Source of the DNA: Candidatus Buchananbacteria bacterium
Lineage (GTDB): Bacteria > Patescibacteriota > Patescibacteriia > 2-01-FULL-39-33
Length of the DNA stretch: 64,000 nt
Direction: 5' to 3'
NCBI GenBank assembly: GCA_030650095.1
Contig: JAUSEE010000007.1
Coordinates: forward strand, 16,812-80,811
Position 1 is the first letter of the stretch. The number at the start of each line of letters is the position of its first letter. Shown here piece by piece: positions 2,453 to 63,992 of the stretch. The position numbers and the translations under genes are program-made. A model generated the notes under the pieces. The model worked only from the letters and a program-made list of their open reading frames with translations, was not told the origin of the DNA and did no database searches.

Positions 2453-2670
2453 ATTATTTTAACTTATTATTTATAACTTATAGCTTATATCTCTCATACT
2501 ATGACTTCGCTATTAGCTATTTATTTATAAAAATTTTAAATTCAAAATTTCAAGTTCCAAATAAATTCCAAATATTAAATTTAAAATCCAAAAAATAATT
2601 ATTTTAATTTGATGTTTTGTAATTTATGATTTATTTGACATTTGTGATTTTGAATTTGTTATTTCTTGAT

Positions 2671-16389: not shown

Positions 16390-19302
16390 CTATGGTTTGG
16401 GCACGCAAGTTCCAAAACAACAACCCGTACTGCCATCGCCTAAAACAGTTGAATGATCTTTGGTAATAATCCAACTACCGCCTAAATCTGTCGTGGTGGC
16501 ACTCTCATCATAATATAAAACCTTGCAAAAATTATCTGTCGAATCGCATTCATTGGCGTTTTCTATTTCCGGACAATTTAAATAACCATAAGAAGCCGGA
16601 TTAGTGGGCAAAACCGGAGCGCAACCAGCCGATAAGGCGTACCCGTTATAACTGCAGATCTGTCCTGATTTAGCAGCTTCTTTGGGGCCAGCGCTAGGCA
16701 GAAAACAATTCTGGCTGATTGATTGGAGGCCAGAACCGGCCAGCGGGCCATATTTGGTGGCTAAATCAAAATCATTATGGTTTAAGCTAGCCTTGGTAAA
16801 ATCAGCCCAGCCGTCGAAATTTTGATCCAAATCATTTTTTAAAGACCAATAGCCGACCGGCACAGCTGATTCGCTGATGGTTTGTAAAACCAAATATCTG
16901 ACTGATTTTTCCTTTGGAGTAGAACCGTAATTCCAACCTGGTTTTAGGGTAGAACTGCGCATCAATCTATCAAAGCTAAAATCAACTTTAGTTTTCGGGC
17001 TGTTAATTTGATCATCACCTACCGGTTCATCGGTTTTAAGCAGCGGAGCCTTTTTGTCTATCTCGCTGGAAATATTAAATGACCAGGAAAAATTATCACC
17101 GAAACCACTAAGGCCAAAAGCCGGAGTTGATGAACCGTAGCTTACCACTCTTGACCCAGGAGCAGAACAATCGCCTGGCTGGCAGATTATGCCTAAATTC
17201 AAATCATACTTACTGCGTCCGGATTTGCCTTCGCCACTGCCTGATTGACCTTGGGCAATGCCTATGGTTTTATTATTGTATTGATAAGTGTCAAAACTGC
17301 CGTTGAAAGCATTAAAACTCATATCCACCAGGCCGTTCATTTGCGGAGATAAAGGATAAAATACTTGCTTGCCATCAACAGTCTTAAGACAGCGGCCATG
17401 GCCATCACTTATTCCGCCCCAAGCCGAACATTTGGCGTCACTGGCGTTCATCAGGGTAGCCGAAGAAATCTCTACCTCATAAGGCTGGGCATTGCCAGAA
17501 ACCGGCCAACAGAACATAGTATCGCCGCAGCTATTTGTGCCACATTCATCGGGAGCCACCAGTTCTATCGTTTTATATTGATTGGATATTTCCACTGTAT
17601 AGCCGGTAATTGCAACACCAGCTCTTTTGACAATGATGCTATCTTCTATAACCGACGGATTAACCGCTTCATTGAAATTAATTTGAATGATTGTATTCCT
17701 ATAAGCGTCAGGCAGACCATTGGGCTCGCGATTCGGCTGCTGATCTTGGCCATTAGTTTTAGTAATAACGAAGTTGCTACTGGTGCCGATGAAATTTAGA
17801 TTATATTTAGCGGTAGCGGCGCCAGTCTGCTTGGTTTGAACGCAGTTAGCCCCGCAAGTTTCAAATAGATTGGTATCACTTATTAATTTATCATCAAAAC
17901 CGGCTGGATTAGGAATATCGGTGCCAAAAGTGTAGGTTTTAATAGTAGTGCTATTATCTTTAAGTTCCAATTTATCTCCATCTTGGTGAGCCACGACATT
18001 AAAAGTCCAAGAATTGCCACGGGCCACGACACCATCAGCATTAAAGACCAAGCCGTACGGACCTATATTCAAAATGGCTCCAGGCGGATCAAATTGGCCG
18101 CTGTTAAATGTGCCCATAGTTCCTGGCCAAGTGGTTTTTATTTCTCCAGTGCCGGAATCAACCCTAACTGTAACCAAGCCGGTAGCTGTACCGCCATAGT
18201 TGCCAGTAATGATTCCGGAAATAGTAGTGCCGCCCCCCTTAACAGCAGTACTATCGAAGGACGACAATGTTTCTAATCTAATATTAGCCAGAGTTAGAGC
18301 CACGGAAAATTGAGTGGCTGTCGGGCCGGAGGCCACGCCATAATCATCCAGCAAATCATCTGGGTAAGGATAAACACCAGCTAGATTAATAATTTCGGGC
18401 GGATCCAAATCTAATTCTCCATTAGTGGTAAATTGCCAAGCGTACTCTTCATTAAATAAGTTATCAAAGACTGATTTACCAGGCTCAGCCACGGTTTCTA
18501 TGCCTGACTTTAGATTGACCTTAAACCTCCGGTTGGCAAAATCTTCTAAGCCCAGATATTTATTTGGTATGATAGTAAATGTTCTGTCGTCATTACTGTC
18601 CACTATGCTGCCGGAAAAGGCGCCAACAGAAAATTCTTCGCCTTCTTCCTGACAGATGCCGTTATTATCAACTTGGCAGATTTCTATATTGGTCATGGCC
18701 GTATCAGTGCCGTTACAAACAGCCGCTCCACAGATAGTCTGGGGATTAATTTTTTCCTTGAAAGTCACAGCAATAGCGGTATTAATCGGCACATCAACTT
18801 GCCCCGGAGACGGATAAACGCTTTCAATCGGTCCTACGCCAATGCCCCAACGGCCCAAATCGCCAGGACCGCCGCCACCATGGCCATAGTCGCCACCGCC
18901 ACCAAAACCAGCCAAGATACCAATAATAAAAGCGGTTATAATATAGGATGATAAAATAATAATTATGCCGATAACCGTGTTAATCAGTATTTTTTTGGCT
19001 TTCTCAATTTTAGCCGGGTCACCGCCGGAAGTCATCCAAACAAATCCGCCATAAAGCACCATAATAACCGCAAAGATGCCTAAAAATCCCAAGATAAGTT
19101 GGATAATCCGAACAATAGCTACTCTTAAATCATTTTGAGGCAAGCCGATAGCCGCCGCATCAGCCAAGCCAAAACGGTTTGGAGCTTGAGCCAAGCCTAC
19201 ACTGGGCAAAATTAAGAGTAAAAAAAACGCCAAGAAAGATACCAAGAGTACTCTTTTGGCGATTTTCGACTTCTGCATGGATGAAAGCCGTGGACTAAAC
19301 AT
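16390..19302 (-). CDS. Large (970 aa) secreted, membrane-anchored surface protein with the same VirB2/TrbC-pilin-like N-terminal module, a Gly-rich linker, multiple beta-rich extracellular domains and a Cys-rich C-terminus
   Basis: N-terminus: ...SVGLAQ APNRFGL..AAAIGLPQNDLR..LILGFLGIFAVIMVLYGGFVWMTSGGDPAKIEKAKK..VIGIIIILSSY. Gly-rich linker GGGGDYGHGGGGPGD. The gene ends 9 nt upstream of the 3310-aa gene. Confidence 0.75.
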   Translation of the reverse strand: MFSPRLSSMQKSKIAKRVLLVSFLAFFLLLILPSVGLAQAPNRFGLADAAAIGLPQNDLRVAIVRIIQLILGFLGIFAVIMVLYGGFVWMTSGGDPAKIEKAKKILINTVIGIIIILSSYIITAFIIGILAGFGGGGDYGHGGGGPGDLGRWGIGVGPIESVYPSPGQVDVPINTAIAVTFKEKINPQTICGAAVCNGTDTAMTNIEICQVDNNGICQEEGEEFSVGAFSGSIVDSNDDRTFTIIPNKYLGLEDFANRRFKVNLKSGIETVAEPGKSVFDNLFNEEYAWQFTTNGELDLDPPEIINLAGVYPYPDDLLDDYGVASGPTATQFSVALTLANIRLETLSSFDSTAVKGGGTTISGIITGNYGGTATGLVTVRVDSGTGEIKTTWPGTMGTFNSGQFDPPGAILNIGPYGLVFNADGVVARGNSWTFNVVAHQDGDKLELKDNSTTIKTYTFGTDIPNPAGFDDKLISDTNLFETCGANCVQTKQTGAATAKYNLNFIGTSSNFVITKTNGQDQQPNREPNGLPDAYRNTIIQINFNEAVNPSVIEDSIIVKRAGVAITGYTVEISNQYKTIELVAPDECGTNSCGDTMFCWPVSGNAQPYEVEISSATLMNASDAKCSAWGGISDGHGRCLKTVDGKQVFYPLSPQMNGLVDMSFNAFNGSFDTYQYNNKTIGIAQGQSGSGEGKSGRSKYDLNLGIICQPGDCSAPGSRVVSYGSSTPAFGLSGFGDNFSWSFNISSEIDKKAPLLKTDEPVGDDQINSPKTKVDFSFDRLMRSSTLKPGWNYGSTPKEKSVRYLVLQTISESAVPVGYWSLKNDLDQNFDGWADFTKASLNHNDFDLATKYGPLAGSGLQSISQNCFLPSAGPKEAAKSGQICSYNGYALSAGCAPVLPTNPASYGYLNCPEIENANECDSTDNFCKVLYYDESATTTDLGGSWIITKDHSTVLGDGSTGCCFGTCVPKP

Positions 19303-24342: not shown

Positions 24343-25326
24343 ATGAAAAAGAGAAACGGTTTTACATTGATAGAACTTTTAGTAGTTATAGCCATTATCG
24401 GCATTTTGGCAGCCATACTTTTGCCAGCGCTGGCGCGAGCCAGAGAGGCGGCACGTCGATCCAGTTGCGCCAACAATCTGAAACAGTTCGGGCTTATTTT
24501 CAAAATGTATGCCAATGAATCTGGTGGTAAGTATCCACCGATGATGGGGTACACATCAAGTGACAGGCAGAAACCGGATCGAGTAGTCGGCTACAGTTCG
24601 ACACCCTGCGGTTTCGTCAACCCGCGATTGGCTCCACCCGCGCCTCCAGCCACAGCCGGCGGAGATGCGGAATTCATCTTCGACGGTAAAGCCGTTTATC
24701 CAGAATACATGACAGATCCAGCTATTTTGGTTTGCCCGTCCGATTCCGACGGTTCTGAGCGGAAAACTGCGGGAGAATTTAATCTGAACGGTGATACGAA
24801 TCTGTCGATTGACCCGTGCAATTTCAGCGCGGTGTCATATATGTATCTCGGCTGGGTGTTGTCCGGCAAGGCGGGCGATGATTATTTAATGAAAGGCGCG
24901 GATGCCAACAATCCAGCCATAGCCAATCTCGTAAGTCCACTTCAGGCCGTCGGCACGTATTTGGATCCCGGCTTTATCGTGAGAATTTTGACCCTGCTAA
25001 CGACAGCGTCTATGACGAATAATCCAGCGGAGTATGATCAGGATCTTAAGTTCGCCAATGCCTTTGCCGAGCAAAAGACGCTCTATCGAGTCCGAGAAGG
25101 CATCGAGCGGTTCTTCATCACTGACATCAATAATCCCGCTGGCAGCGCGCAAGCGCAATCAGTCATACCGTATATGTTTGATTTGTCGAGTTCTCTCGGC
25201 AGCGAATTCAACCATATTCCTGGTGGCGGCAACATATTGTACATGGACGGGCATGTAAGCTTTAATAGGTTCCCGGGAGAATTTCCGGTCACTCGAGCCT
25301 TCGCTCTGATGACATCCATGTTTTAA
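24343..25326 (+). CDS. DUF1559 / H-X9-DG family protein with a prepilin-type N-terminal cleavage/methylation domain (type IV pilin-like)
   Basis: [58 protein letters not shown] is the canonical DUF1559 N-terminus. C-terminal [17 protein letters not shown] is the H-X9-DG motif. The gene is markedly GC- and GC-codon-richer than its neighbours. Confidence 0.8.
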
Positions 25327-34493: not shown

Positions 34494-35612
34494 GTGGAGG
34501 GATTAATAATTGAAAACAATAAGCCTGATAACCACTTAAAATATTGGGTGGCTTATTCTAGAATTCAAAAAATCGGTCCGGTAAATTTTAAAAAACTGAT
34601 CGATTTTTTTAGTGATCTTAAAATGGCTTGGCAAGCCAGCCAAAAGCAATTAATCTCCGCCGGTTTAGATGAAAACCTAGCCAGTGAAATAATAATACAG
34701 AGGCAGGAAATAAATCCGGAAGAGGAAATGGCATTAATGGCCAGAGAAAATGTCCAAGCTGTTATCTTAACCGATGACAATTACCCTAGTAATTTAAAAG
34801 AAATATTTAACCCGCCTCCTGTCTTATATTATCGCGGATCAATTGATTTTTTAAAAAACACTTGTTTGGCTGTCGTCGGCACAAGAAAATTTTCCAGTTA
34901 CGGCCAGCAAGCCACCGCAGAAATTGTCAGCCAGTTGGCTAAAAGCGGCCTTACTATCATATCCGGTTTAGCTTTTGGCATTGATGCCATGGCGCATAAA
35001 GCCTGTTTGGAGGCCGGCGGAAAAACCATAGCGATTTTAGGATCGGGCCCGGACAAGCAATGCGTTTTTCCCTCCAGCAACAGATATATTGCCGACAAGA
35101 TAATCAATGCCGGCGGTGGCCTTATAGCCGAATATCCTATCGGCACCTACCCGACCAAATACACCTTTCCCATGAGAAACCGCATCATTTCCGGATTATC
35201 CAAGGCTGTCTTAATAATAGAGGCGCCCAAGAGTTCCGGCTCGCTTATCACTGCGCGCTACGGCCTGGACCAAAACAGGGACATATTCGCCCTCCCGGGA
35301 AGCATTTACAGCGCTAACAGCCAAGGCACCAATAACTTGATAAAAGAGGGCGCAAAATTAATCACCAGCGCCGATGATATCCTGCAAGAATTAAACATCC
35401 AAACCGTCTTTGAAAAATTAAAAAGCCAACCACAAATTGACAACAACGAAGAAAAAATAGTCTTAGATTTATTATCTAAAGAACCCATGCACATTGACAA
35501 AATAAAAAAAATGAGTAAACTTAATATTAATGTCCTCTTGAGCACTTTAACGATCATGGAAATAAAAAGCCTGATAAAAGACCTGGGAGGAAAAAATTAC
35601 ATCAGAAATTAA
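34494..35612 (+). CDS. dprA: DNA processing protein DprA/Smf
   Basis: Rossmann-like core VVGTRKFSSYGQQATAEIVSQLAKSGLTIISGLAFGIDAMAHKACLEAGGKTIAILGSGPD. The start codon is uncertain: GTG at 34494 follows the track. Confidence 0.8.
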   Translation: MEGLIIENNKPDNHLKYWVAYSRIQKIGPVNFKKLIDFFSDLKMAWQASQKQLISAGLDENLASEIIIQRQEINPEEEMALMARENVQAVILTDDNYPSNLKEIFNPPPVLYYRGSIDFLKNTCLAVVGTRKFSSYGQQATAEIVSQLAKSGLTIISGLAFGIDAMAHKACLEAGGKTIAILGSGPDKQCVFPSSNRYIADKIINAGGGLIAEYPIGTYPTKYTFPMRNRIISGLSKAVLIIEAPKSSGSLITARYGLDQNRDIFALPGSIYSANSQGTNNLIKEGAKLITSADDILQELNIQTVFEKLKSQPQIDNNEEKIVLDLLSKEPMHIDKIKKMSKLNINVLLSTLTIMEIKSLIKDLGGKNYIRN

Positions 35613-53114: not shown

Positions 53115-53169
53115 GGAGACGTAGCTTCCGCCTCGGCTTCGCCTTAGGCGAGACGGGCAGCTGGTTAGA
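53115..53169 (+). pseudogene. tRNA-Asp 5' fragment A, carrying a 31-nt insertion in the D-loop
   Basis: GGAGACGTAGCT-[tccgcctcggcttcgccttaggcgagacggg]-CAGCTGGTTAGA, then sequence unrelated to the tRNA. Confidence 0.6.
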
Positions 53170-53213
53170 ATACATTGGCGGAATCAAATAAAGTCACTTA
53201 ATTTCATACATTT

Positions 53214-53429: not shown

Positions 53430-53503
53430 GGAGACGTAGCTCAGCTGGTTAGAGCGCTTCCCTGTCACGGAAGTGGTCGAGGGTTCAAGTCCCTTCGTCT
53501 CCG
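53430..53503 (+). tRNA. tRNA-Asp (anticodon GUC); CCA not encoded
   Basis: GGAGACG TA GCTC AGCTGGTTA GAGC G CTTCC CTGTCAC GGAAG TGGTC GAGGG TTCAAGT CCCTT CGTCTCC G. Confidence 0.85.
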
Positions 53504-53513
53504 CGAATAATTA

Positions 53514-53541
53514 TAAAAACCACCCTTGCGGTGGTTTTTAT
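53514..53541. terminator. Bidirectional rho-independent terminator after tRNA-Asp
   Basis: AAAAA CCACC cttgc GGTGG TTTTTAT. Confidence 0.8.
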
Positions 53542-53545
53542 AATT

Positions 53546-54010
53546 TTATTCAGACTTTATATCGACGGCGTTTTGTAAAGTTTTTTCAAACACGGCCGCC
53601 GCAGTAGCGATGACGACGGAAATAAAAGTAGCCAAAATACCTATGGTGATAAAGCCCGCCGGATCGTCATCTTTATTATGAAATATCCTGATGTATAGTG
53701 CTGCCATTACAATTGAGATACTCAGTATGATTGCGCAATATTTTATAATCCTTAAAGCTTTCACCGAGCTTAGTGAGAATACTTTGTTTTGCCCGATGTA
53801 TCTGAGTAATTTAAACGCTTGATACAGCGCAACAAAAAATGGGATAGACGCTATGTACATATACATTATGAACGGATCAGAGTAAATGCTAAACAGGTCT
53901 AAGTTTACGGCTCTCCCCTCAGTCAGAGGAAATTGAATCATGACAAAGAGCACCAAGATGCCGATGAGTACAATGACTGCCTGAAGAAATATTATTGAGC
54001 CTCGTTTCAT
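53546..54010 (-). CDS. Hypothetical 4-TM membrane protein
   Basis: ORF with hydrophobic helices. Confidence 0.4.
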   Translation of the reverse strand: MKRGSIIFLQAVIVLIGILVLFVMIQFPLTEGRAVNLDLFSIYSDPFIMYMYIASIPFFVALYQAFKLLRYIGQNKVFSLSSVKALRIIKYCAIILSISIVMAALYIRIFHNKDDDPAGFITIGILATFISVVIATAAAVFEKTLQNAVDIKSE

Positions 54011-54243
54011 AAATTGTGTTTATAAATCGTATTTGAAGTAATCACTAACGTTTTTTTATATTAGTTTTAGTAAACTAATATATATTGTTGGCAATTTATA
54101 TACACTTTACTATTTTTGATTATTTTTGTCCATTCCAGATGTCTTGCCCTTTTTTTAATCGTCCGTAAGTTCTGTATTTTACAAAAATCGCCCAAACAGC
54201 AATTTTTTGATACACTAACAATACCAAATAATCTATTAAACAG

Positions 54244-54789
54244 ATGAAAAAAATTACAAAAAGATCAATCTTGTGGGTTGTCATCGCAGCCTTTATATTC
54301 ATAGTATTTTTGTCGATGCTGTTCACTGATGAAGTGAGCTTAGGTGAGGCGGTTGCTTATGGTATCATACTTTTAGCCGCTGGCGGCTTCTGTGAATTGT
54401 GGCAATGGCTGAAAACGCGCACCAAGGTATACCGCATCGCTTTTGTCGTCGGGCTTGCAGGCGCACTCCTTCTCGGTTGGGCCAATGGCGCTGTCGGCAT
54501 TATTGGCAGCGAAAATAATCCTGCTAACTTGATGTACGGAGCGGTATTTGCTGTCGGACTCATCGGCTCTACTATGGCACGCTTCAAGCCGCGCGGAATG
54601 GCACACACATTGTATGCAGCAGCACTTGTTCAGATATTGATTCCAGCAGTCGCGCTCTTTATCTGGCCAGCCAAGGCCTCTTGGGGCGAGGCGGGAGTAA
54701 TTGGCGTGTTTATAGTAAATTCATTTTTCGCCCTACTGTTTGTCGTATCGGCTTTGCTGTTTAGACACGCGACGCACGAGCGCAACTGA
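54244..54789 (+). CDS. Hypothetical polytopic membrane protein (GC-richer than the core genes)
   Basis: ORF with about 6 TM helices. Confidence 0.4.
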   Translation: MKKITKRSILWVVIAAFIFIVFLSMLFTDEVSLGEAVAYGIILLAAGGFCELWQWLKTRTKVYRIAFVVGLAGALLLGWANGAVGIIGSENNPANLMYGAVFAVGLIGSTMARFKPRGMAHTLYAAALVQILIPAVALFIWPAKASWGEAGVIGVFIVNSFFALLFVVSALLFRHATHERN

Positions 54790-54828
54790 CTTAGAAGTAA
54801 AACAGAGATAGTTTAAAATTACTAGTAA

Positions 54829-54862
54829 GATCGCCTAAATGGCGATTTTTTTGTTATAATAA
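54829..54862 (+). promoter_or_regulatory. Hairpin terminator fused to an extended -10 promoter (TGtTATAAT), module copy A, upstream of purD
   Basis: GATCGCC taaat GGCGATT TTTTT-TGT-TATAAT. About 85 % identical over roughly 40 nt to copy B at 58669..58700. Confidence 0.55.
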
Positions 54863-54891
54863 AAAATATCAGTTTGATAAAATTTATTATA

Positions 54892-56148
54892 ATGAATATT
54901 TTAATAATCGGTTCAGGCGGGCGTGAGCATGCTCTCGCTTGGAAGCTGAAGCAATCTCCAAAAGTAAAAAAGATATTTATCGCTCCCGGCAACGCAGGCA
55001 CTTCTGCTTGCGGAGAAAATGTTTCTTTAGATACTCTTAATCATCAGACTGTCATTGATTTTTCAAAACAACATGAGATCGGTTTAATTGTCATCGGCCC
55101 TGATGATGTTTTGGCTTCGGGCCTGGTTAATGCTCTTCAAAATTCTGGTATAAAAGTTTTTGGCCCAACTAAAGAGGCGGCAGAAATTGAGTGGTCTAAA
55201 TCTTTTGCTAAAAATTTGATGAAACACCTGAACATTCCGACCGCAGATTCAGTCGAATTTACTGAAATAGAAATTGCCAAAAAGTATGCGAGAGAACATA
55301 TTTATCCCTTAGTGATTAAAGCGGGCGGGCTTGCTTTAGGCAAGGGTGTGATTATAGCGGACTTTTACGATCAAGCAGTTACCGCATTAGAGAATATAAT
55401 GACTAAAAAAGTTTTTGGCGCTGCCGGGGATACAGTTATAATCGAAGAATTTCTGCAGGGTGAGGAAATATCTGTGCACGCTTTTTGTGATGGAAATACT
55501 GCAGTGATGTTTCCGTCCGCCCAAGACCATAAAAGTATTTTTGATGGCGACAAGGGACCGAATACGGGCGGTATGGGCACGGTCGCTCCCGTTCCGACTG
55601 TTTCAGAAAGTATTTTACTTCGGATTGAATGTGAAGTGGTACTGCCTATTCTTCGGGAATTAAAAGACATGGGCCGGCCGTTTAAAGGTATTTTATTTCC
55701 TGGAATCATGCTGACTAAAGATGGACCGAAAGTGCTGGAATTCAATGCCCGTTTCGGTGATCCAGAAACACAATCTTATGTGAGAATTCTAAAAACTGAT
55801 CTTTTGGAAATCTTGTTAGCTTGCGTGGACGGAAAATTGGATGAATTGCAAATTGAATGGGAGAAGAACATGTCGTCTTGCTGCGTGGTTCTGGCATCAA
55901 AAGGATACCCCGGAGATTATCAAAAGGGACTGCCGATAACAGGTATTACAGAGGCAGAAAAAATGGAAGATATTGTTGTTTTTCACGCCGGAACAAAACT
56001 TTCAGACAATAGATTGATCACTAATGGCGGTAGAGTATTGGGCATCAGCGCTACTGGCAATATTCTATCAGAGGCAGTAGAAAAAACTTATAGAGCTGTT
56101 GAAATAGTCGATTTCGCTGGCAAGCAATATCGAAAAGATATCGCCTGA
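54892..56148 (+). CDS. purD: Phosphoribosylamine--glycine ligase PurD
   Basis: MNILIIGSGGREHALAWKL plus an ATP-grasp domain. The track ORF starts 18 nt upstream; the start at 54892 fits PurD N-termini. Confidence 0.85.
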   Translation: MNILIIGSGGREHALAWKLKQSPKVKKIFIAPGNAGTSACGENVSLDTLNHQTVIDFSKQHEIGLIVIGPDDVLASGLVNALQNSGIKVFGPTKEAAEIEWSKSFAKNLMKHLNIPTADSVEFTEIEIAKKYAREHIYPLVIKAGGLALGKGVIIADFYDQAVTALENIMTKKVFGAAGDTVIIEEFLQGEEISVHAFCDGNTAVMFPSAQDHKSIFDGDKGPNTGGMGTVAPVPTVSESILLRIECEVVLPILRELKDMGRPFKGILFPGIMLTKDGPKVLEFNARFGDPETQSYVRILKTDLLEILLACVDGKLDELQIEWEKNMSSCCVVLASKGYPGDYQKGLPITGITEAEKMEDIVVFHAGTKLSDNRLITNGGRVLGISATGNILSEAVEKTYRAVEIVDFAGKQYRKDIA

Positions 56149-56192
56149 CTAGAGAAACGAGAGGAAAATCTCGTCCACTTTCTCTCGCATTA

Positions 56193-56229
56193 AAGAACGA
56201 GCAGTTGCTTTTGCAACTGCTCGTTCTTT
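56193..56229. terminator. Bidirectional terminator: perfect 15-bp-stem hairpin between convergent purD and the metalloprotease gene
   Basis: AAAGAACGAGCAGTTGC ttt TGCAACTGCTCGTTCTTT. Confidence 0.85.
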
Positions 56230-56260
56230 GTTTACAAAGATTTGAACTAGTTCCAACCGG

Positions 56261-58516
56261 TTACTTGGTTACAGTAATCGTCTTAGTAGAGATATTGTTT
56301 GAAGCACTGCTATCTGTCGCCGTTACGGTTATGGCATGGGAGCCTGAAGAAATCTGGCTTACAGCAACTTTATCGGAGCAGGATGCAGTTATACAAGTTT
56401 TCAAGATTTTTTCATCTAACTTTATAATCATTGAAGCCACACCGCTACTATCAGTCGCTGAAGCGGAAACAGTCAAAGTGCCTTTTGTGGGAATATTAGA
56501 TCCGTCGGCTGGATCAGAAATAGTGATAGCTGGGCCTGTGGCATCCGGTGCTATTAAATTGATTTGGGCTGAAGCACTGCCGAAATAGACACTAGAGGAA
56601 TTGTCAACGACTTGTTCAGTGATCGTATATGTACCGGCTTCATTTGAAGCGGTAACAGTGAAAGCTTTGGTCACGCTGGAACCGGGAACCATAAAAGAAA
56701 AATCAAAAGCCCCGATTTGTGTGAAGCCACTGGGCAGAAGAGGTGTAACCGTATAATCAACAGGTGGGCAGGTATTACTATCGTTATTTTTAACCGTCAG
56801 ATTGAAAGATTGGGTTTTGTTTGTTTCAATAGTCGCAGAAGTCGGACTCAATGTGACTGTCGGATTAGCTTTGATGCAGGCAACTTGCGCCATATTGGCA
56901 GTAAATTCAACATAAGGATTAATGGGATCGGTGCTGGTAGCTGTTTGAGTAATTTGCAAGGGCATAGCCGGATCATCGAAAGACGTGCCATTGCTTAATG
57001 TTTTAATATAGCGGGTTACAACACTACCACCAGTGTAACGATGTATATTGACACCAGTTAAATTACTGGGGGCTTTGGTGGTCAATAGAGAATCATAACC
57101 AACGGCGGTGCGGTAAGACAAATAATAATATTCTGAAGTACCAGGTATAGCGATTTTTATAACTTGCGGGTATATGGCAACACCAGGATCCTGTTCGGTG
57201 GGTGAGAGCCGAAATGTGCCGCTGGCAGTTATGGTTTGGACTTTTCCTGGAAAAAGATTAAACCAAGTCATTTGATTCTTGTGTGCTCCGTTATATTGCC
57301 TTAATCCTACAGAGCCATTCCCCATTAGGTCAGAGCTGTCCCCATACTCTTTATCCACCACTCCGTCATTGTTTGTATCAGTGCCGGCATGGCGCATCCC
57401 CAGATTGTGGCCTAATTCGTGACCGATAATGCCTGCGGAAGCCGACGCGATCCACGCCTTACAGGTTGTAGCGCAGCCAACATTGGCGATTCCGCCCCAA
57501 CCGCAGGAATTGCCAGGCAGGATAAAGACCAGATGCTGGTACAGGCCAGTATTGACGCCGGAGGCGACTGCCAGATTGATGGCTTGATCGCCCCAGGTGT
57601 TATAGGCGCAAGAGTCGGTTGAAGAAGCGGCGATTTTAAACGGCCCGACAACATCCACTGAGCCATTGCCATCAGTATCGCGTTTGAAACCGAGTTGACC
57701 GAAAGACATTTCCCGATACAGGCCATCGACTGAATTAGTAGAGCCGTAAACAGCGGTATCAATCTTGTCGGCTGTCATTGATGTGTTCTTGTCTTGGAAA
57801 TTAACTAAAATAAATAAGGCTTTGCGTTCAATTGCGGTTATGGCGTTGGTCGTAACTGCTGAGCTGGCAATATTTTCCACCAGCAATTCTTCCGGCCCCA
57901 AAACATAACCGTCCAAAGAAGCGCTATCTGCGGATGACAGCCTCTCTGCTTGCTTCTTGGGAACATGCAACTCAAATCTTTTGCCGCTGATTTTATCCTT
58001 CAAGAAATATTTAACTTCTGATTTGTTTTTTTGGAAATCGTCTAGCTGGATGACATCCAACTGCCCGGAAATAGCAATCGGACTTTCAATCAGGCTTTGA
58101 ACATCGACTGGCAACTTTTTTTTAAGTTCAGCCGGAATAATAAATGACAGAGCAGTATCTGGGTCGGTTTGAGCGGCTTTCAACAGCTGGCTTTTGCGAA
58201 GCAAAGCTTGACTTAAGACTTTATTGAGCGATTCGGATTTGGTAGACTGGGCTCTTTGATAATCTATATTAGCATTGAGCAAGTCCGCATTGCCCTTCGC
58301 CAGAGCCATTGACAAGACTTCGCTTTCAGCCTGATTTGACGACTGCTTTCTGACAGTTAAGGCTTGGTTTAATGAAGAACTTGGCAGTGAGAATGCAGCC
58401 AAGTACATTAGGCTGGAAAAGGCCGAAGCAACTAGAATTATGACAATAAAAGCCGTGGCCGAGCTGATCTTAACTTTAGTTTTAGTCAGGATAGATCGAG
58501 TGTTTTTCTCTTTCAT
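56261..58516 (-). CDS. Membrane-anchored/secreted metzincin zinc metalloprotease (reprolysin-like HExxHxxGxxH) with C-terminal Ig-like/beta-sandwich domains
   Basis: N-terminal TM helix. Zinc motif IIGHELGHNLGMRHAG. Thr/Ser-rich repeated beta-domains at the C-terminus. GC-richer than the core genes. Confidence 0.7.
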   Translation of the reverse strand: MKEKNTRSILTKTKVKISSATAFIVIILVASAFSSLMYLAAFSLPSSSLNQALTVRKQSSNQAESEVLSMALAKGNADLLNANIDYQRAQSTKSESLNKVLSQALLRKSQLLKAAQTDPDTALSFIIPAELKKKLPVDVQSLIESPIAISGQLDVIQLDDFQKNKSEVKYFLKDKISGKRFELHVPKKQAERLSSADSASLDGYVLGPEELLVENIASSAVTTNAITAIERKALFILVNFQDKNTSMTADKIDTAVYGSTNSVDGLYREMSFGQLGFKRDTDGNGSVDVVGPFKIAASSTDSCAYNTWGDQAINLAVASGVNTGLYQHLVFILPGNSCGWGGIANVGCATTCKAWIASASAGIIGHELGHNLGMRHAGTDTNNDGVVDKEYGDSSDLMGNGSVGLRQYNGAHKNQMTWFNLFPGKVQTITASGTFRLSPTEQDPGVAIYPQVIKIAIPGTSEYYYLSYRTAVGYDSLLTTKAPSNLTGVNIHRYTGGSVVTRYIKTLSNGTSFDDPAMPLQITQTATSTDPINPYVEFTANMAQVACIKANPTVTLSPTSATIETNKTQSFNLTVKNNDSNTCPPVDYTVTPLLPSGFTQIGAFDFSFMVPGSSVTKAFTVTASNEAGTYTITEQVVDNSSSVYFGSASAQINLIAPDATGPAITISDPADGSNIPTKGTLTVSASATDSSGVASMIIKLDEKILKTCITASCSDKVAVSQISSGSHAITVTATDSSASNNISTKTITVTK

Positions 58517-58668
58517 AAATTTAAAGATAATTGTAAATGATTATGGAGATTTTTTATATAAATAAAGATATTATGATATTAATTATACCTCTGTTCAACT
58601 GAAAAGCAAAGAATCTATGGCCACCATCTAGCCGTTTCATCTTTCAATTGCCTCTAGCTAATTAAAAA

Positions 58669-58700
58669 GATCGCCTAAACGGCGATTTTTTGGTAAAATA
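58669..58700 (+). promoter_or_regulatory. Hairpin plus extended -10 (TGgTAAAAT), module copy B, upstream of the EamA gene
   Basis: GATCGCC taaac GGCGATT TTTT-TGG-TAAAAT, 25 nt upstream of the ATG at 58725. Confidence 0.55.
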
Positions 58701-58724
58701 AAAACATTAAATAATACTTACATT

Positions 58725-59633
58725 ATGTCTTGGTTTTGGCTGGCTCTAGCCGCCCCAATTTTATGGGGTGCGGTCAATCATATTGATAAATACATTATCA
58801 GTAAATATTTTACCGGCAAGGGAGTCGGTTCGTTGGTGATTTTTACCGGCTTATCCGGTTTTATTATTTCTTTCTTGATTTTAGTTTTTAATTTCTCCAG
58901 TATTTTCCTTTCTCCTGTGACAGCCTTAGTCATTGCCATAAATGGAGCGATTTTAGTAGCCGCCTTTATTCCGTATTTGTATGCGCTAGAAAAAGAAGAG
59001 GCCTCTTGGGTTAGTCCGCTTTATCAATTGATTCCTGTTTTTGGATATTTTTTAGGAATGATATTCTTGAAAGAATACCTATCACTAAACCAAATCATCG
59101 GTTCCATTCTAATCATAGTTGGCGCCTTTGCCCTATCATTAAATATAACCTCTAAATTGCAGTTTAAGATAAGGCCATTTTTACTGATGGTTTTATCATC
59201 ATTTATGATTGCGGTTAACGCTTTGATATTCAAAATAATTGCTCTGCAGGAAAATTTTTGGGGCACTGCCTTTTGGGAGTATCTGGGAGGATTTATTTTT
59301 GCGATATTTCTTTTTACTTCTGTTTCTCTTTACCACAAGCAGTTTCTGGCGACAATTGAAAAGAGTCAAGGACTGGTTTTGAGTTTGAATATTTTTTCTG
59401 AATTAATGAATATAGTTGCTAAACTATTGGCTGGTTTTGCCAGCTTGCTTGCTCCCTTGGCCTTAGTTTGGGTGGTAAACGGATTCCAGCCGGTGATCGT
59501 GCTAATTTATGGCATTATCCTGACTTTGTTTATTCCTAAGTGGGGCAAGGAAAATTTAGATAGAAAATTTCTAACACAGAAGATTGTTGCCATTTTGATC
59601 ACTTTTTTAGGCGCGTATATATTGTTTAGCTGA
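58725..59633 (+). CDS. EamA/DMT-family transporter (10 TM)
   Basis: Duplicated 5-TM EamA-like halves. Confidence 0.65.
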   Translation: MSWFWLALAAPILWGAVNHIDKYIISKYFTGKGVGSLVIFTGLSGFIISFLILVFNFSSIFLSPVTALVIAINGAILVAAFIPYLYALEKEEASWVSPLYQLIPVFGYFLGMIFLKEYLSLNQIIGSILIIVGAFALSLNITSKLQFKIRPFLLMVLSSFMIAVNALIFKIIALQENFWGTAFWEYLGGFIFAIFLFTSVSLYHKQFLATIEKSQGLVLSLNIFSELMNIVAKLLAGFASLLAPLALVWVVNGFQPVIVLIYGIILTLFIPKWGKENLDRKFLTQKIVAILITFLGAYILFS

Positions 59634-59752
59634 TAAGCTAAATATATTTATTCGTCTCTGCAAAATTAGATAAAAAAAGAAACTCCTATCAAAGGCGGAC
59701 AAGCCCTGGGCAGGAGTTTTATTGATTATTTTAATCAAGCGTTTCAGAACAA

Positions 59753-60319
59753 TTATACTTCAACCCAAGCATAAGGAGAAAGTATCCAGGCCTCTTTCAA
59801 ATCATCCGTTTTTTCCAGCTCACGTAGGCCGCCGGTGAAATACCTGGGCCGTTTGGCTGGATCATCGCCAAGCGATAATACAGCAGAGCCCACAGTAATT
59901 AACATGGTTTTTTCTTGGACATTGAATGTTTCTATTCTTTTACCTATAACCATTTCAGAAAAATGATCCCATTCTTTTTTATAATGGTTTGAATAAAGCG
60001 GGATTTGAACATTGTATTGATCGGGATTAGCCGCCAACCACATGTCATTGACCAATATCCAATTTGTCGCTCCCCAGATTCTCAAGATCAGCCATTCTTC
60101 GCGATATCTGAAGGTTTTTCTAAGCCTAAAGCCGAGAAATCCAGGCCCGCCTTGGCCGTAGGTGCCACAATAACCAGACCATTCAATTATTTCACGGCCG
60201 ATCACTCTCTTGGCCACAGCCGGGAATATGTCCTTTTTCTGCTTCTTGGTTGGCAGTATGGGAACTAATTTTGATTCAATTCTTTCTGCTTGGGGGCAGC
60301 TGATATCAAACAATGGCAT
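59753..60319 (-). CDS. Hypothetical protein
   Basis: ORF only; no motif recognised. Confidence 0.35.
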   Translation of the reverse strand: MPLFDISCPQAERIESKLVPILPTKKQKKDIFPAVAKRVIGREIIEWSGYCGTYGQGGPGFLGFRLRKTFRYREEWLILRIWGATNWILVNDMWLAANPDQYNVQIPLYSNHYKKEWDHFSEMVIGKRIETFNVQEKTMLITVGSAVLSLGDDPAKRPRYFTGGLRELEKTDDLKEAWILSPYAWVEV

Positions 60320-60538
60320 TTCTTTCTCCTTTTCTGTTCTGTTTTTACAATGAACAACACTGAAACACTACAATATATAAATAATTTTGTCAATCTTCAA
60401 TTGGCTTAAAAAATCATTACTTAAAATCATCCACTCCAAAATTGCTAATAAAATAATTTTTTTGTATTATTACAACATATGGAAAAATTCAAAAAAATTG
60501 AACAGCCGGATGCTACCAATGAGATTGATAAACTATAA

Positions 60539-60781
60539 GTGTCAGAGTCACCCCATGGCATGCCTTGCATTCAAATAGAAAACCCAAGCCAGCCTTGGCG
60601 TAGCATCATCCGTCAAGCCATAACGGTAAACGATATGAATGATCCGGCTTACGGCCTGCGCAGTGAAGCCGGGGCATTTTTACAAAGCGATAGTGATGAC
60701 TACCTCCTAGTTGAATTTTGGAAGCCAGATTACCAGCCGTTTGTTGATTATCTTAATGAACGGATTAGTTTAAAAAAATAA
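60539..60781 (+). CDS. Hypothetical small acidic protein
   Basis: ORF only. Confidence 0.3.
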   Translation: MSESPHGMPCIQIENPSQPWRSIIRQAITVNDMNDPAYGLRSEAGAFLQSDSDDYLLVEFWKPDYQPFVDYLNERISLKK

Positions 60782-60793
60782 TAGCCAAATTAA

Positions 60794-60822
60794 AAAACTC
60801 CCAAAGATAGGGAGTTTATAAT
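60794..60822. terminator. Bidirectional rho-independent terminator
   Basis: AAAAAACTCCC aaagata GGGAGTTTATAATTT. It is near-identical to the hairpin at 62236..62262. Confidence 0.75.
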
Positions 60823-60840
60823 TTACGATAAGGATCTAAT

Positions 60841-61032
60841 TTACAAAAACAAACGAACTCTTTTGCCCAGTGGTTGGCGGTCGGCCACTACCAGATTTTC
60901 CACTGTGGTTTCAAATATATCAGGCAGCGGCTCTGGGTCATCAGGCCAGGTGCTGCCGGTGCAAGTAACCTCAATGTCTCCCTCTTGCTCTTGAACTTGC
61001 AACAATTTTTCCACCAAAGCGCTGATTTTCAT
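60841..61032 (-). CDS. Hypothetical small protein
   Basis: ORF only. Confidence 0.25.
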   Translation of the reverse strand: MKISALVEKLLQVQEQEGDIEVTCTGSTWPDDPEPLPDIFETTVENLVVADRQPLGKRVRLFL

Positions 61033-61177: not shown

Positions 61178-61933
61178 ATGATTCTAAAAAATAAAGTGGC
61201 CATAGTCACTGGCGCCAAGCAAGGCATCGGCTACGGCATTGCTTTGGCTTTGGCCAAGGAAGGCTGCCAGGTGGTTGTAAGCGATTTAAGCCAAACCGAT
61301 TGCGAAAAAGCGGCGGCTAAAATAAAGAAGGCGGGAGTAAAAACACTGGCCGTAAAATGTGATGTCTCCAAAAAGAAAGAAGTTGATAACTTGATAACCA
61401 AAACAATAAAAGAATTCAAGCGCTTGGACATTTTGGTCAACAATGCCGGCATTTTTCCTTTTGTTTCTTTTGATAAAATGACAGAAGCCGATTGGGATAA
61501 AGTGATAGATACTAATTTAAAAAGCGTGTTCTTGTGTTGCCAGTCAGCCGTAAAAGCCATGAAAGCCGGCGGTAGAATTATCAATATTTCTTCCATTGCT
61601 TCTTTTGTCGGCTTTGAAGGCTTGGTTCACTACTGCGCTTCCAAGGGAGGCATAAATGCCCTAGTGCGAGCCTTGGCCTTGGAACTGGCTTCCAGAAAAA
61701 TAAATGTCAACGCCGTAGCACCAGGGGCTATCAACACTCCCGGCGCCAAACAGCCTGATCAGCCGAAAACTAAATCCGAAGAACTGGTAAAACAAACCAT
61801 AACTATGATCCCCTTGGGCCGAATGGGCGAGCCTAAAGATATCGCCAATGCTGTTGTCTTTTTAGCTTCCAATATGGCTGATTACATCACCGGGCAAACG
61901 ATAATCGTGGACGGCGGTTGGACTCTAAGGTAA
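61178..61933 (+). CDS. SDR-family oxidoreductase (FabG-like 3-oxoacyl-ACP reductase)
   Basis: Cofactor motif VAIVTGAKQGIGYGIA, NNAG, and the catalytic YCASKGG (YxxxK). The start at MILKNKVAIVTG is preferred over the track's upstream Met. Confidence 0.85.
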   Translation: MILKNKVAIVTGAKQGIGYGIALALAKEGCQVVVSDLSQTDCEKAAAKIKKAGVKTLAVKCDVSKKKEVDNLITKTIKEFKRLDILVNNAGIFPFVSFDKMTEADWDKVIDTNLKSVFLCCQSAVKAMKAGGRIINISSIASFVGFEGLVHYCASKGGINALVRALALELASRKINVNAVAPGAINTPGAKQPDQPKTKSEELVKQTITMIPLGRMGEPKDIANAVVFLASNMADYITGQTIIVDGGWTLR

Positions 61934-62711: not shown

Positions 62712-63992
62712 TTAGTAAGGCAGAAAAGTAACATTGTTATTGTTAATCAAATCATTGCCGTTGGGCGATGAATCTAGAGCATTGTTGTTGAATCTCCAAT
62801 AACCCATTAGGCCCGGCTCGGAACCGGTTAATTCTATATCTTTACTGCTCAAGATTTCATTTTGAGTTCTGGCCACATTCCAGATGCGCAATTCATCCAT
62901 TTTGCCATCGAAATTATCTCCGTAACCAGATGGCGATCCTTCCCATTGATGACCAATAGAAAATCCCGTACTACTGTTATGAATAGAATTAAAGACTCCT
63001 ATTATTTGATCTCCGTGATGCAGACCATTAACATAAAAATCTACTGTGCCTAAAGAAGCATGATAAACTACTGCCACATGATACCAACTATCTACAGATG
63101 GCATCCAATTAGATGTATTCTGCATTATATTGCTACCATTAGAGCTAATAGTAAAATCGAATTTATACACCCCACTCCAATTACTAATTACAAATAAATA
63201 TGATACATCATGACCCTGATTAGAATCATTGCCCTTACTAAAAATTGGGTAGTTTCTGCCATCTTGTGGCAGAATGGAAATATTTATCCAAGCTTCAAGT
63301 GTCATATCGCTAGTTATATCCAGTCCAACTTGATCCGCATCTGAAATAGAAAAATATTGGCTCAAACTTCTTTGAAAATTAGCATAAGCCGAAAACTCAT
63401 CAGGCGGTGGAGGCGGATCAACAATCAAGCTTTCCAAATAAACAATCCTCTCCTCCAATTCCGCTACTCGGTTTTCATCCCAACTAGGATCGCCCGGATC
63501 ACCTTTCGGCCCCGGTATGCCTTGAGGACCGGCTTCACCTGGAAGACCAGTTAACCCTGTCTCACCTGTCAATCCTGGAATACCCTGAATTCCTTGAACA
63601 CCACGGAGTCCACGAAGACCCTGTGGACCACGAAGGCCTTGCGGACCAATGTTGCCTTGAGGGCCTTGCGGACCGGCTTCACCTGGGGTACCCGATATGC
63701 CCTGTAACCCTTGTTCTCCTTGAGAGCCTGGGGGACCGGTTAACCCTGTTTCGCCTGGCAAGCCTTGCGGCCCCATTTCTCCTGGCAAACCTGGCAGGCC
63801 TTGCGGGCCTGGAGTTAATTCAATGTTTGTAACTTGATCTTCTAAATTCCCCAAGGCATCCCATAGGGCCTCAAAGGGCTGGCCACTGGGATTACTGCCG
63901 ACCATAACCATATTGTGATTGTTATTAGCCATCGCCAAATTGGTGATAAATAAAACAAAAATTACGCTCAACAAACAAGTTAACTTCTTCAT
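62712..63992 (-). CDS. Secreted collagen-like triple-helix-repeat protein with a C-terminal LamG/concanavalin-like domain
   Basis: Signal peptide. About 35 G-x-y triplets (GPQGLPG..), coiled-coil VAELEERIVYLESL and PPPP. The C-terminal LamG end motif MDELRIWNVARTQNEI parallels DDVRFYDRALTSNEV in the giant protein. Confidence 0.7.
   Translation of the reverse strand: MKKLTCLLSVIFVLFITNLAMANNNHNMVMVGSNPSGQPFEALWDALGNLEDQVTNIELTPGPQGLPGLPGEMGPQGLPGETGLTGPPGSQGEQGLQGISGTPGEAGPQGPQGNIGPQGLRGPQGLRGLRGVQGIQGIPGLTGETGLTGLPGEAGPQGIPGPKGDPGDPSWDENRVAELEERIVYLESLIVDPPPPPDEFSAYANFQRSLSQYFSISDADQVGLDITSDMTLEAWINISILPQDGRNYPIFSKGNDSNQGHDVSYLFVISNWSGVYKFDFTISSNGSNIMQNTSNWMPSVDSWYHVAVVYHASLGTVDFYVNGLHHGDQIIGVFNSIHNSSTGFSIGHQWEGSPSGYGDNFDGKMDELRIWNVARTQNEILSSKDIELTGSEPGLMGYWRFNNNALDSSPNGNDLINNNNVTFLPY

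Follow-up and report, generated by a model that had tools for sequence, protein, structure and literature searches.

Positions 53546-60320 of a 64-kb stretch of DNA from a Candidatus Buchananbacteria bacterium (the window: 64,000 nucleotides at 40.2% GC, analysed over its whole length) lie directly downstream of a tRNA-Asp gene and hold purD, a metalloprotease gene, an EamA transporter gene and genes for two membrane proteins and a protein of 188 aa. This interval is probably the tRNA-proximal part of a lineage-variable, mosaic accessory region (a plasticity zone) at a tRNA-Asp hotspot, rather than a discrete recent island. The host belongs to the Patescibacteria (Candidate Phyla Radiation, CPR), and the feature is of a known kind in a group with few described examples. 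An earlier note on this DNA had proposed a candidate genomic island; it pointed to the right place for largely the wrong reasons, as the tRNA flank was indeed found to be a variable site, whereas the arguments from composition, from an orphan purD regarded as odd and from att-like rearrangements were not upheld.

The membrane proteins, purD, protease and EamA that had been read in the block were all present as open reading frames (ORFs), in agreement with domain searches. Both of the membrane proteins described as unknown were there, one of them belonging by Pfam to the DUF2975 family and the other having no Pfam family, whereas only one of the two small proteins expected within the interval lies inside it (188 aa), the next two (73 and 63 aa) being outside at 60560-61032. 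The genes of the interval and those following it are:

53546-54010, minus strand: DUF2975 membrane protein, 154 aa (Pfam DUF2975, 4e-29)
54244-54789, plus strand: multi-pass membrane protein of 181 aa (no Pfam family)
54892-56148, plus strand: purD, 418 aa, intact (Pfam GARS_N/A/C; TIGR00877)
56261-58516, minus strand: metalloprotease, 751 aa (Pfam Peptidase_M11, 3e-15; Big_7, 2e-9)
58725-59633, plus strand: EamA/DMT-superfamily transporter, 302 aa (Pfam EamA, 2.9e-11)
59753-60319, minus strand: protein of 188 aa (no Pfam, NCBIfam or PHROG match)
60560-60781, plus strand, and 60841-61032, minus strand: two small convergent ORFs of 73 and 63 aa, without family, called as genes in the Logan assembly
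61178-61933, plus strand: short-chain dehydrogenase, SDR (Pfam adh_short_C2, 1e-75)
62712-63992, minus strand: collagen-repeat/laminin-G surface protein (Pfam Laminin_G_3 and Collagen)

Each of the purD, protease and 188-aa proteins has a 100% identical NCBI counterpart in a Candidatus Buchananbacteria metagenome-assembled genome (MAG).

The tRNA-Asp flank in related genomes

Seven Patescibacterial relatives (L003-L009; IF3 identity 51-84%) were obtained from an IF3 scan of GTDB species representatives, L004 being the closest relative of the window and L005 a Buchananbacteria genome; L003, L004, L005 and L006 correspond to PEZY01, CAYIBK01, MHIM01 and CAIPBY01. Gene order from about 43.5 kb of the window through infC-rpmI-rplT was kept in all seven and broke at tRNA-Asp, a gene that was called in L003-L007 and L009 and not called in L008. 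The contigs of four of the seven stop 1-8 kb past this tRNA, as assemblies do at strain-variable sites.

In L006, a gene for a large serine recombinase of 568 aa (Resolvase, Recombinase and Zn_ribbon_recom domains; 11451-13157) was found with its 3' end overlapping the 3' end of the tRNA, and downstream of it an S49 peptidase gene and then a type I methylase gene (HsdM). At the position of this recombinase, L004 carries a 143-aa ORF (11556-11987) of which 137 residues align, at 53% identity, with the C-terminal part of the L006 protein, and by this alignment the ORF is a decayed copy of an L006-type recombinase; beyond the remnant come genes for a pirin, a leucine-rich repeat protein and others. 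L009 has genes for an EamA protein, a patatin, an S11 peptidase and a permease after tRNA-Asp. Its EamA protein was considered as a counterpart of the one in the window and rejected, the two proteins being unrelated. The content downstream of the tRNA in L004, L006 and L009 was wholly unlike that of the window, and no two relatives agreed with each other there.

In L006 (Asp), in L004 (Asp) and in the metagenomic locus L088 (Ala; recombinase gene at 1481-3127), the gene for the large serine recombinase runs towards a tRNA gene, its last codons overlapping the 3' end of the tRNA. The L088 gene is flanked by 133-nt inverted repeats, 95% complementary to one another; for the L006 element, looking for repeats at its ends gave no informative result.

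L005 has part of its content in common with the window. After its tRNA-Asp come a 305-aa ORF, an N6/N4 DNA methylase gene, possibly of a restriction-modification system, and a DUF3644 gene, and these are followed by homologues of the window's DUF2975 (55% identity), 181-aa (67%), SDR (80%) and collagen-like (48%) proteins. The 181-aa homologue directly precedes SDR with nothing in between, so that the window has an extra segment at about 54.8-61.1 kb comprising purD, the protease, EamA, the 188-aa gene and the small ORFs. Both flanks of this segment are common to the window and L005, and SDR is the right flank of the insertion or deletion. Presence and absence of genes next to tRNA-Asp were therefore confirmed by the comparison of relatives, the purD-to-188-aa block being missing at the syntenic junction of L005. 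These comparisons support the 3' flank of tRNA-Asp as a truly variable site in this clade.

The features at and around the tRNA are:

53116-53170 and 53213 to about 53400, plus strand: two partial 5' copies of tRNA-Asp, read from the sequence (repeat families D2, D4 and D10)
53430-53504, plus strand: intact tRNA-Asp (GTC), found by ARAGORN and by Rfam (tRNA, 71 bits)
53509-53545, no strand: perfect 16-nt inverted repeat (I16) flanked by A and T runs, from inverted-repeat and terminator scans

Both fragments are 5' pieces lying upstream of the intact gene. After GTAGCT, a GC-rich insert of 32 nt is common to both, and a further insert of about 100 nt is present in the second. A diverged partial copy of tRNA-Asp was also detected in L004 (11370-11475), again upstream of tRNA-Asp, and because one copy is common to the window and L004 the partial copies predate the split and the arrangement was inherited. 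The fragments therefore do not bracket the block, since they are upstream of the tRNA and older than the L004 split. The view of these rearrangements as att-like was consequently abandoned, as no 3' tRNA repeat was present downstream: the 3' 26-mer of tRNA-Asp occurs once in the 64 kb even at 3 mismatches, and no att repeat was found (its distal end could fall outside the window). No Rfam family was matched by the partial copies; their region has a fold z-score of -2.4, and they might represent a structured leader or an RNA resembling a tRNA. The inverted repeat at 53509-53545, between the convergent tRNA-Asp and DUF2975 genes, probably terminates transcription from both sides. When 52.9-61.3 kb was scanned against Rfam (E <= 1), the tRNA alone was returned, with no riboswitch upstream of purD, EamA or the 181-aa gene.

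That no integrase is visible in the window, as the earlier note had remarked, was borne out by domain scans, no recombinase domain being found in any of the window ORFs scanned, and tblastn with the L006 recombinase gave just the 12 residues of the tRNA overlap. A PHROG scan of the block gave nothing significant, save a weak ATP-grasp match for purD. A phage or plasmid origin was rejected, as no DNA similarity was found beyond conserved stretches of purD and DUF2975 and no PHROG match was significant.

A micro-ORF of 19 codons (MEKFKKIEQP...; 60479-60538, plus strand) with a promoter-like site (TTGCTA-17-TATTAT) follows the 188-aa gene. It has 88.6% nucleotide identity over 70 nt to positions 12756-12825 of L004 despite differing neighbour genes, and its L004 counterpart is at about 12796-12855. 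A terminator-like hairpin (60795-60817) separates the 73-aa and 63-aa ORFs. The core chromosomal genes in the window include ftsZ, ftsA, ybeY, hisS, lepB, der, pth, dprA, topA, a relA/spoT-type gene, parB, parA, two class II aminoacyl-tRNA synthetase genes and smpB, in addition to infC, rpmI and rplT.

Composition and the DUF2975 gene pair

The genes at 54244-58516 had been described as GC-richer than the core genes, and mildly they are: this segment has 43.8% GC compared to 40.0 +/- 2.1% in equal-sized windows, 5.6% of which are as high or higher. The local value near 55% claimed for parts of the protease gene was also recovered (55-56% at 57300-57700). As evidence of foreign origin the excess failed, being modest and driven by amino-acid content; purD is GC3-poor, and purD, the protease, EamA and the 188-aa gene are native-like in codon usage. 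The whole interval 53546-60320, at 41.1% GC, was not distinct, with 26% of equal-sized windows reaching that value, and its tetranucleotide distance (z 1.5-2.2 over 53-58 kb) was equalled or surpassed by that of the surface-protein region at 6-16 kb (z up to 2.7). The maximum GC across the window falls in the giant surface-protein gene (6448-16380).

At the level of single genes, purD has 41.1% GC and a third-codon-position GC (GC3) of 0.348, compared to a gene mean of 0.401. The protease gene has 44.9% GC, with 0.453 at second codon positions (GC2) and a GC3 of 0.432, which is within 1 standard deviation (SD). Because its excess sits in second codon positions, it reflects amino-acid content; the gene for the surface protein of 3310 aa, with a GC2 of 0.456, has the same pattern. 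The sole clear GC3 outlier in the interval was the 181-aa gene (0.516, +2.4 SD).

Synonymous codon usage was compared with the rest of the 64-kb window by means of a codon-bias z, with a null that preserves the amino-acid content of each gene (window median 1.0, interquartile range 0.3-1.9). The values for purD (1.5), the protease (1.6), EamA (1.5) and the 188-aa gene (-0.9) are typical of the window, whereas those for DUF2975 (3.6) and the 181-aa gene (4.1) are not. The compositional signal is therefore weak, and where it is real it concerns DUF2975 and the 181-aa gene rather than purD or the protease.

Elsewhere in the window, the 3310-aa ORF (6448-16380) together with the following T4SS-pilin/Big_5 protein of 970 aa (16390-19302) was the strongest outlier in GC, tetranucleotides and codons. 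Strong codon-usage outliers were also a pilin-like gene and dprA (24343-25326 and 34494-35612; z 6.2 and 6.0), the pilin-like gene (N_methyl) having 49.7% GC and 53% GC3.

The relatives of the two codon-atypical genes were followed in 80 metagenomic loci with 181-aa gene homologues (L046-L125), in a Parabacteroides distasonis record (L126; NZ_OY725834.1) and in plasmids. The window DUF2975 protein has 68% gap-free identity to a P. distasonis protein (L126, 3982-4461; about 70% at the DNA level) and 81-82% to the metagenomic loci L068 and L084, whereas its identity to the syntenic L005 counterpart is 55%. That tandem DUF2975 paralogues had been lost differentially was considered as the cause of this low value and rejected, as the L005 copy is also of the first-paralogue type. 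DUF2975 genes were present in 51 PLSDB plasmid records, chiefly of Bacillus/Priestia.

For the 181-aa family, 246 relatives were found in JGI metagenomes. DUF2975 adjoins the 181-aa gene in 13 of the 80 loci kept; L068 has an operon of DUF2975, DUF2975, an HTH_26 regulator and the 181-aa gene, and L085 and L088 share the order tRNA-Ala, large serine recombinase abutting the tRNA, HTH_3 gene and 181-aa gene. Of 58 non-redundant loci, 10 had a tRNA gene within 500 bp of the 181-aa gene, with seven tRNA identities, mostly upstream and on the same strand. In 54 of 56 loci the 181-aa gene had a higher GC content than the remainder of the locus (mean +6.0 points, the offset being largest in low-GC hosts), and its GC3 exceeded the host-ORF median in 25 of 32, with the top value in 15; the L005 copy has the same offset. 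No helix-turn-helix (HTH) ORF was found at 54010-54244 of the window, where a 68-aa ORF lacks HTH-like sequence.

On the basis of these sequence comparisons, DUF2975 and the 181-aa gene, rather than purD or the protease, are the best candidates for horizontal transfer in the interval. Since L005 carries both at the same place, they arrived before the window and L005 split. The DUF2975-HTH-181-aa membrane module may be a cross-phylum cassette that is carried next to tRNA genes by large-serine-recombinase elements.

purD, the metalloprotease and the neighbouring transcription units

The purD ORF opens at a TTG (54874), and the deposited protein, 100% identical to MDO8668933.1, starts at the ATG at 54892. 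Its three Pfam domains GARS_N, GARS_A and GARS_C were matched at 8e-38, 9e-74 and 1e-31, and TIGR00877 at 515 bits compared to a cut-off of 288. It aligned end-to-end with the glycinamide ribonucleotide (GAR) synthetases 2qk4, 2yrw and 1gso of the PDB (E 1e-102 to 1e-124), the best being the GARS domain of human GART (6e-124). By these matches it is an intact canonical GAR synthetase, predicted to convert phosphoribosylamine, glycine and ATP into GAR.

Its best non-self matches were 70-75% identical. Nine of the ten with informative taxonomy were from Patescibacteria (Kaiserbacteria, Paceibacterota, Sungbacteria, Daviesbacteria, Moraniibacteriota and 'Patescibacteria group') and one from Anaplasmataceae, three more carrying the label 'bacterium' only. 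This profile of best matches argues against a foreign origin of the gene, and the 70-75% identity is maintained between hosts of 40% and 58% GC.

The pur genes are scattered in many bacteria, and purD is found in operons such as purHD in E. coli and purEKBCSQLFMNHD in B. subtilis. No other pur gene was found in the 64-kb window by domain scans of ORFs, and no pur neighbour was present within +/-10 kb (less at contig ends) of purD in L001/L002, L041, L042, L127 and L128. The gene was solitary in all six Patescibacterial contexts examined, the window and five further ones, so the solitude that had been thought odd is not. Because a lone purD is the rule in the Patescibacteria examined, it is uninformative on foreign origin. 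In two of them purD comes immediately after an M48 peptidase gene, which GroES/GroEL and LemA precede (L042, 9084-11257; L127, 8243-11374), an order that, on this synteny, is a conserved position of the lone purD in another Patescibacterial lineage.

A complete inosine monophosphate (IMP) pathway was reported in 32% of 399 CPR MAGs (PMC11608272), and de novo nucleotide synthesis was reported to be lacking in 93% of Patescibacteria genomes (bioRxiv 10.64898/2026.06.21.733656). A literature search for the whole word purD gave nothing on purD in CPR. It is improbable that many Patescibacteria, this one included, keep a lone conserved purD without the rest of the de novo pathway, with a role for PurD outside it; the cross-phylum cassette suggested above was rated likelier. 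If it were so, PurD could, for example, use host-derived phosphoribosylamine or GAR intermediates, or perform another ATP-grasp ligation. The recurrence of a solitary and strongly conserved purD across Patescibacteria is in itself of modest value.

The protease has the zinc motif HELGHNLGMRH and matched Peptidase_M11 at 56.4 bits (threshold 21), whereas Reprolysin_5 reached 16.6 bits compared to a cut-off of 27 (E 0.0098). Residues H366, E367, G369, H370, H376 and M398 were invariant among 40 homologues, M398 presumably being the Met-turn residue. In an AlphaFold2 model of the whole protein (pLDDT, the predicted local distance difference test score, 90; 94.6 in a model of the catalytic domain), a transmembrane helix (19-39) is followed by a helical stalk (47-123), a beta-sandwich, the catalytic domain and C-terminal immunoglobulin (Ig)-like beta-sandwiches. 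A PDB sequence search gave nothing useful. As a whole-protein Foldseek search was swamped by the Ig-like domains, the catalytic domain was searched alone; the best match was Bacillus anthracis InhA2 (4yu6, family M6), then Akkermansia Amuc_1438/OgpA, and then ADAM and snake-venom proteins of M12B.

The sequence motifs and the model identify the protein as a membrane-anchored M11/M6-like metzincin. The earlier description as a membrane-anchored metzincin with Ig-like C-terminal domains agreed with the transmembrane helix, the zinc motif and the Big_7/beta-sandwich domains; the label 'reprolysin-like' was right at the level of the metzincin fold and wrong at that of the family, as Reprolysin_5 stayed below threshold and M11/M6 fitted better. 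The predicted place of the protease is the cell surface, on its helical stalk, and its predicted activity the cleavage of extracellular proteins, possibly those of the host surface; a stalked membrane-anchored metzincin would be a candidate tool against host cell surfaces in an episymbiont. Its nearest homologues (P0122 and P0123) have 40-41% identity over the full length and are in unrelated contexts on low-GC contigs. The other homologues are 26-40% identical, the named ones being mostly non-CPR (Hydrogenedentes, Nitrospira, Nitrosomonas).

In the EamA protein, the domain was matched in one stretch (residues 2-138; 44.2 bits compared to a cut-off of 28.2). Typical EamA/DMT members have two repeats and 10 transmembrane helices; the second repeat was missed by the profile, and the length of 302 aa fits a two-repeat protein. 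The 188-aa family had 7 homologues in 5.8 billion proteins, the named ones Patescibacterial; one (69% identity) is located among genes for aminoacyl-tRNA synthetases and another (49%) beside a serine recombinase gene, an AIPR gene and a C5 methylase gene. None of purD, the protease, EamA and the 188-aa gene was near the 181-aa gene in any of the 80 metagenomic loci, and homologues of the protease and of the 188-aa protein elsewhere were in unrelated gene contexts. Therefore, as its genes are unlinked elsewhere, the block is not a co-travelling unit.

Between these genes, the following intergenic elements were recorded:

54187-54208, plus strand: degenerate hairpin/-10 module, 57 nt upstream of the 181-aa gene, with an orthologous module in L005 (15521-15537)
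54827-54867, plus strand: hairpin and T-run followed by TGTTATAAT (repeat D1), upstream of purD
56192-56229, no strand: perfect 17-nt inverted repeat (I10) between the convergent purD and protease genes
58667-58707, plus strand: third hairpin/-10 module, 55 nt upstream of the EamA gene

The hairpin (ATCGCC-TAAAY-GGCGAT, followed by a T-run and an extended -10) has three copies in the 64 kb, each 55-62 nt before a plus-strand gene, and the full 41-nt hairpin/promoter module was found before purD and EamA and nowhere else. Two of the copies are in divergent intergenic regions, where a terminator would have no transcript to end. The module at 54827-54867 is a likely combination of terminator for the 181-aa gene and promoter for purD, and the inverted repeat at 56192-56229 a likely two-way terminator. 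The hairpin was also considered as a shared regulator of the 181-aa gene, purD and EamA. This was rejected, as about 2 real matches were found in 65 other 181-aa loci, the hairpin was not upstream of purD in relatives, and hairpins with other loops were ordinary terminator/promoter modules in L009 and L042; it was consequently treated as a lineage-specific terminator/promoter module.

Alternative readings and comparison with known systems

In the mosaic region favoured here, the 3' flank of tRNA-Asp is where large-serine-recombinase integrative elements and genes of the DNA-modification or defence type occur in this clade, and the window would carry separately transcribed genes of different histories. 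DUF2975 and the 181-aa gene would be the rearranged remnant, minus its HTH gene, of a DUF2975-HTH-membrane operon with signs of horizontal mobility. The block of about 6 kb with purD, the metzincin, EamA and the 188-aa gene would be old or vertically inherited, given its native codon usage, and SDR with the collagen-like gene would be a component common to L005. In this region, purD and the protease look native rather than freshly imported.

Several points weigh against this reading. No outgroup shares both flanks, so the difference from L005 may be an insertion in the window or a deletion in L005. The right boundary of the variable region probably lies beyond the end of the window. Other named Buchananbacteria were absent among the best 120 purD matches listed, which hints that purD is patchy within this group, and the 40-41% identity of the nearest protease homologues together with the mostly non-CPR names makes an old transfer of the protease from outside CPR possible. 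The enrichment of tRNA genes near the 181-aa gene is modest (the 10 of 58 loci compared to about 5-11% estimated by chance). Finally, an independent Logan contig (L038) that reproduces the purD-protease-EamA-188-aa-SDR run does not cover the junction between the 181-aa gene and purD, nor that between the tRNA and DUF2975.

The alternative that fares best, although it is doubtful, is that the whole region is ancestral and vertically inherited, the relatives differing through loss or rearrangement during genome reduction and not through gain here. The native codon usage of the purD-to-188-aa block is in keeping with it, as are the Patescibacterial-type purD with conserved local synteny in L042 and L127 and the deep divergence of the compared genomes, whose IF3 identities (51-84%) leave time for many losses. 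All five relatives with enough downstream sequence differ in content, however, mobile-element and defence genes included; the DUF2975 protein is nearer to the Bacteroidota protein (68%) than to its syntenic L005 copy (55%), and the codon usage of DUF2975 and the 181-aa gene is atypical.

The reading of the earlier note, a discrete island at tRNA-Asp that brought in a foreign purD and metalloprotease and later lost its integrase, is unlikely. The window holds no integrase, integrase remnant or att repeat; L005 has DUF2975 and the 181-aa gene in syntenic position, so that the segment is not one unit; purD, the protease, EamA and the 188-aa gene are native in codon usage, with the GC3 of purD below average; the nearest relatives of purD are Patescibacterial and solitary, as is the norm there; and the block genes are unlinked elsewhere. 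These observations have to be set against the position of the block directly after a tRNA whose 3' end is recombinase-associated in relatives, its absence from L005, the mild deviation in GC and tetranucleotides, the mostly non-CPR names of the protease relatives, and the lack of a close purD in other named Buchananbacteria among the matches listed.

An assembly or binning chimera, in which the segment after tRNA-Asp would be DNA of another organism, is very improbable: the frequent contig breaks just past tRNA-Asp in relatives and the two junctions missed by the Logan contig would fit it, but in L005 the two flanks of the block lie together after tRNA-Asp, the 41-nt module is confined within the 64 kb to the sites before purD and EamA, the codon usage of the block is native and the run from purD to SDR is reproduced in the Logan contig.

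The result shows that in CPR genomes neither a mildly raised GC content nor a solitary purD is good evidence for foreign DNA, and second-codon-position GC in surface proteins can mimic an island signal. A tRNA-Asp site of large-serine-recombinase elements in Buchananbacteria would offer an entry point to mobile elements in a group with few known.

Compared with known enzymes, the window PurD resembles PurD/GAR synthetase (TIGR00877; E. coli 1GSO; human GART 2QK4) in being a full-length three-domain ATP-grasp enzyme far above the equivalog cut-off, but unlike its counterparts in E. coli and B. subtilis it is encoded outside any pur operon, alone as in the five other Patescibacterial loci. The protease shares with M11 (gametolysin-type; OgpA/Amuc_1438) and M6 (InhA) metzincins the HExxHxxGxxH motif and invariant Met, a Pfam M11 score above threshold, the best structural matches and an extracellular multi-domain build with Ig-like domains, and differs from them in its N-terminal anchor and long helical stalk and in having 12-18% identity to characterised enzymes in structural alignments. 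To reprolysin/adamalysin (M12B) it is similar in metzincin fold and zinc motif, with Foldseek matches to ADAM and snake-venom proteins at E 1e-4 to 1e-3, although Reprolysin_5 is below threshold and M6 and M11-type structures are closer.

The DUF2975 gene recalls the pair of DUF2975 and YozG-type (HTH_26) genes of Bacillus/Bacteroides, and in L068 and Parabacteroides a small HTH gene is adjacent to it; the 181-aa gene likewise comes after an HTH gene in L068 and L088. The window departs from this module in having no HTH gene and in the inversion of DUF2975 relative to the 181-aa gene. As in tRNA-linked islands and hotspots, the interval is directly 3' of a tRNA at which gene order stops, the content of relatives differs and the cargo is accessory. 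In contrast to such islands, it lacks a recombinase gene and flanking direct repeats, is not clearly set off by its composition, and is a mosaic partly syntenic with L005. Moreover, classic tRNA islands use tyrosine integrases, whereas the recombinases in the relatives of the window are large serine recombinases.

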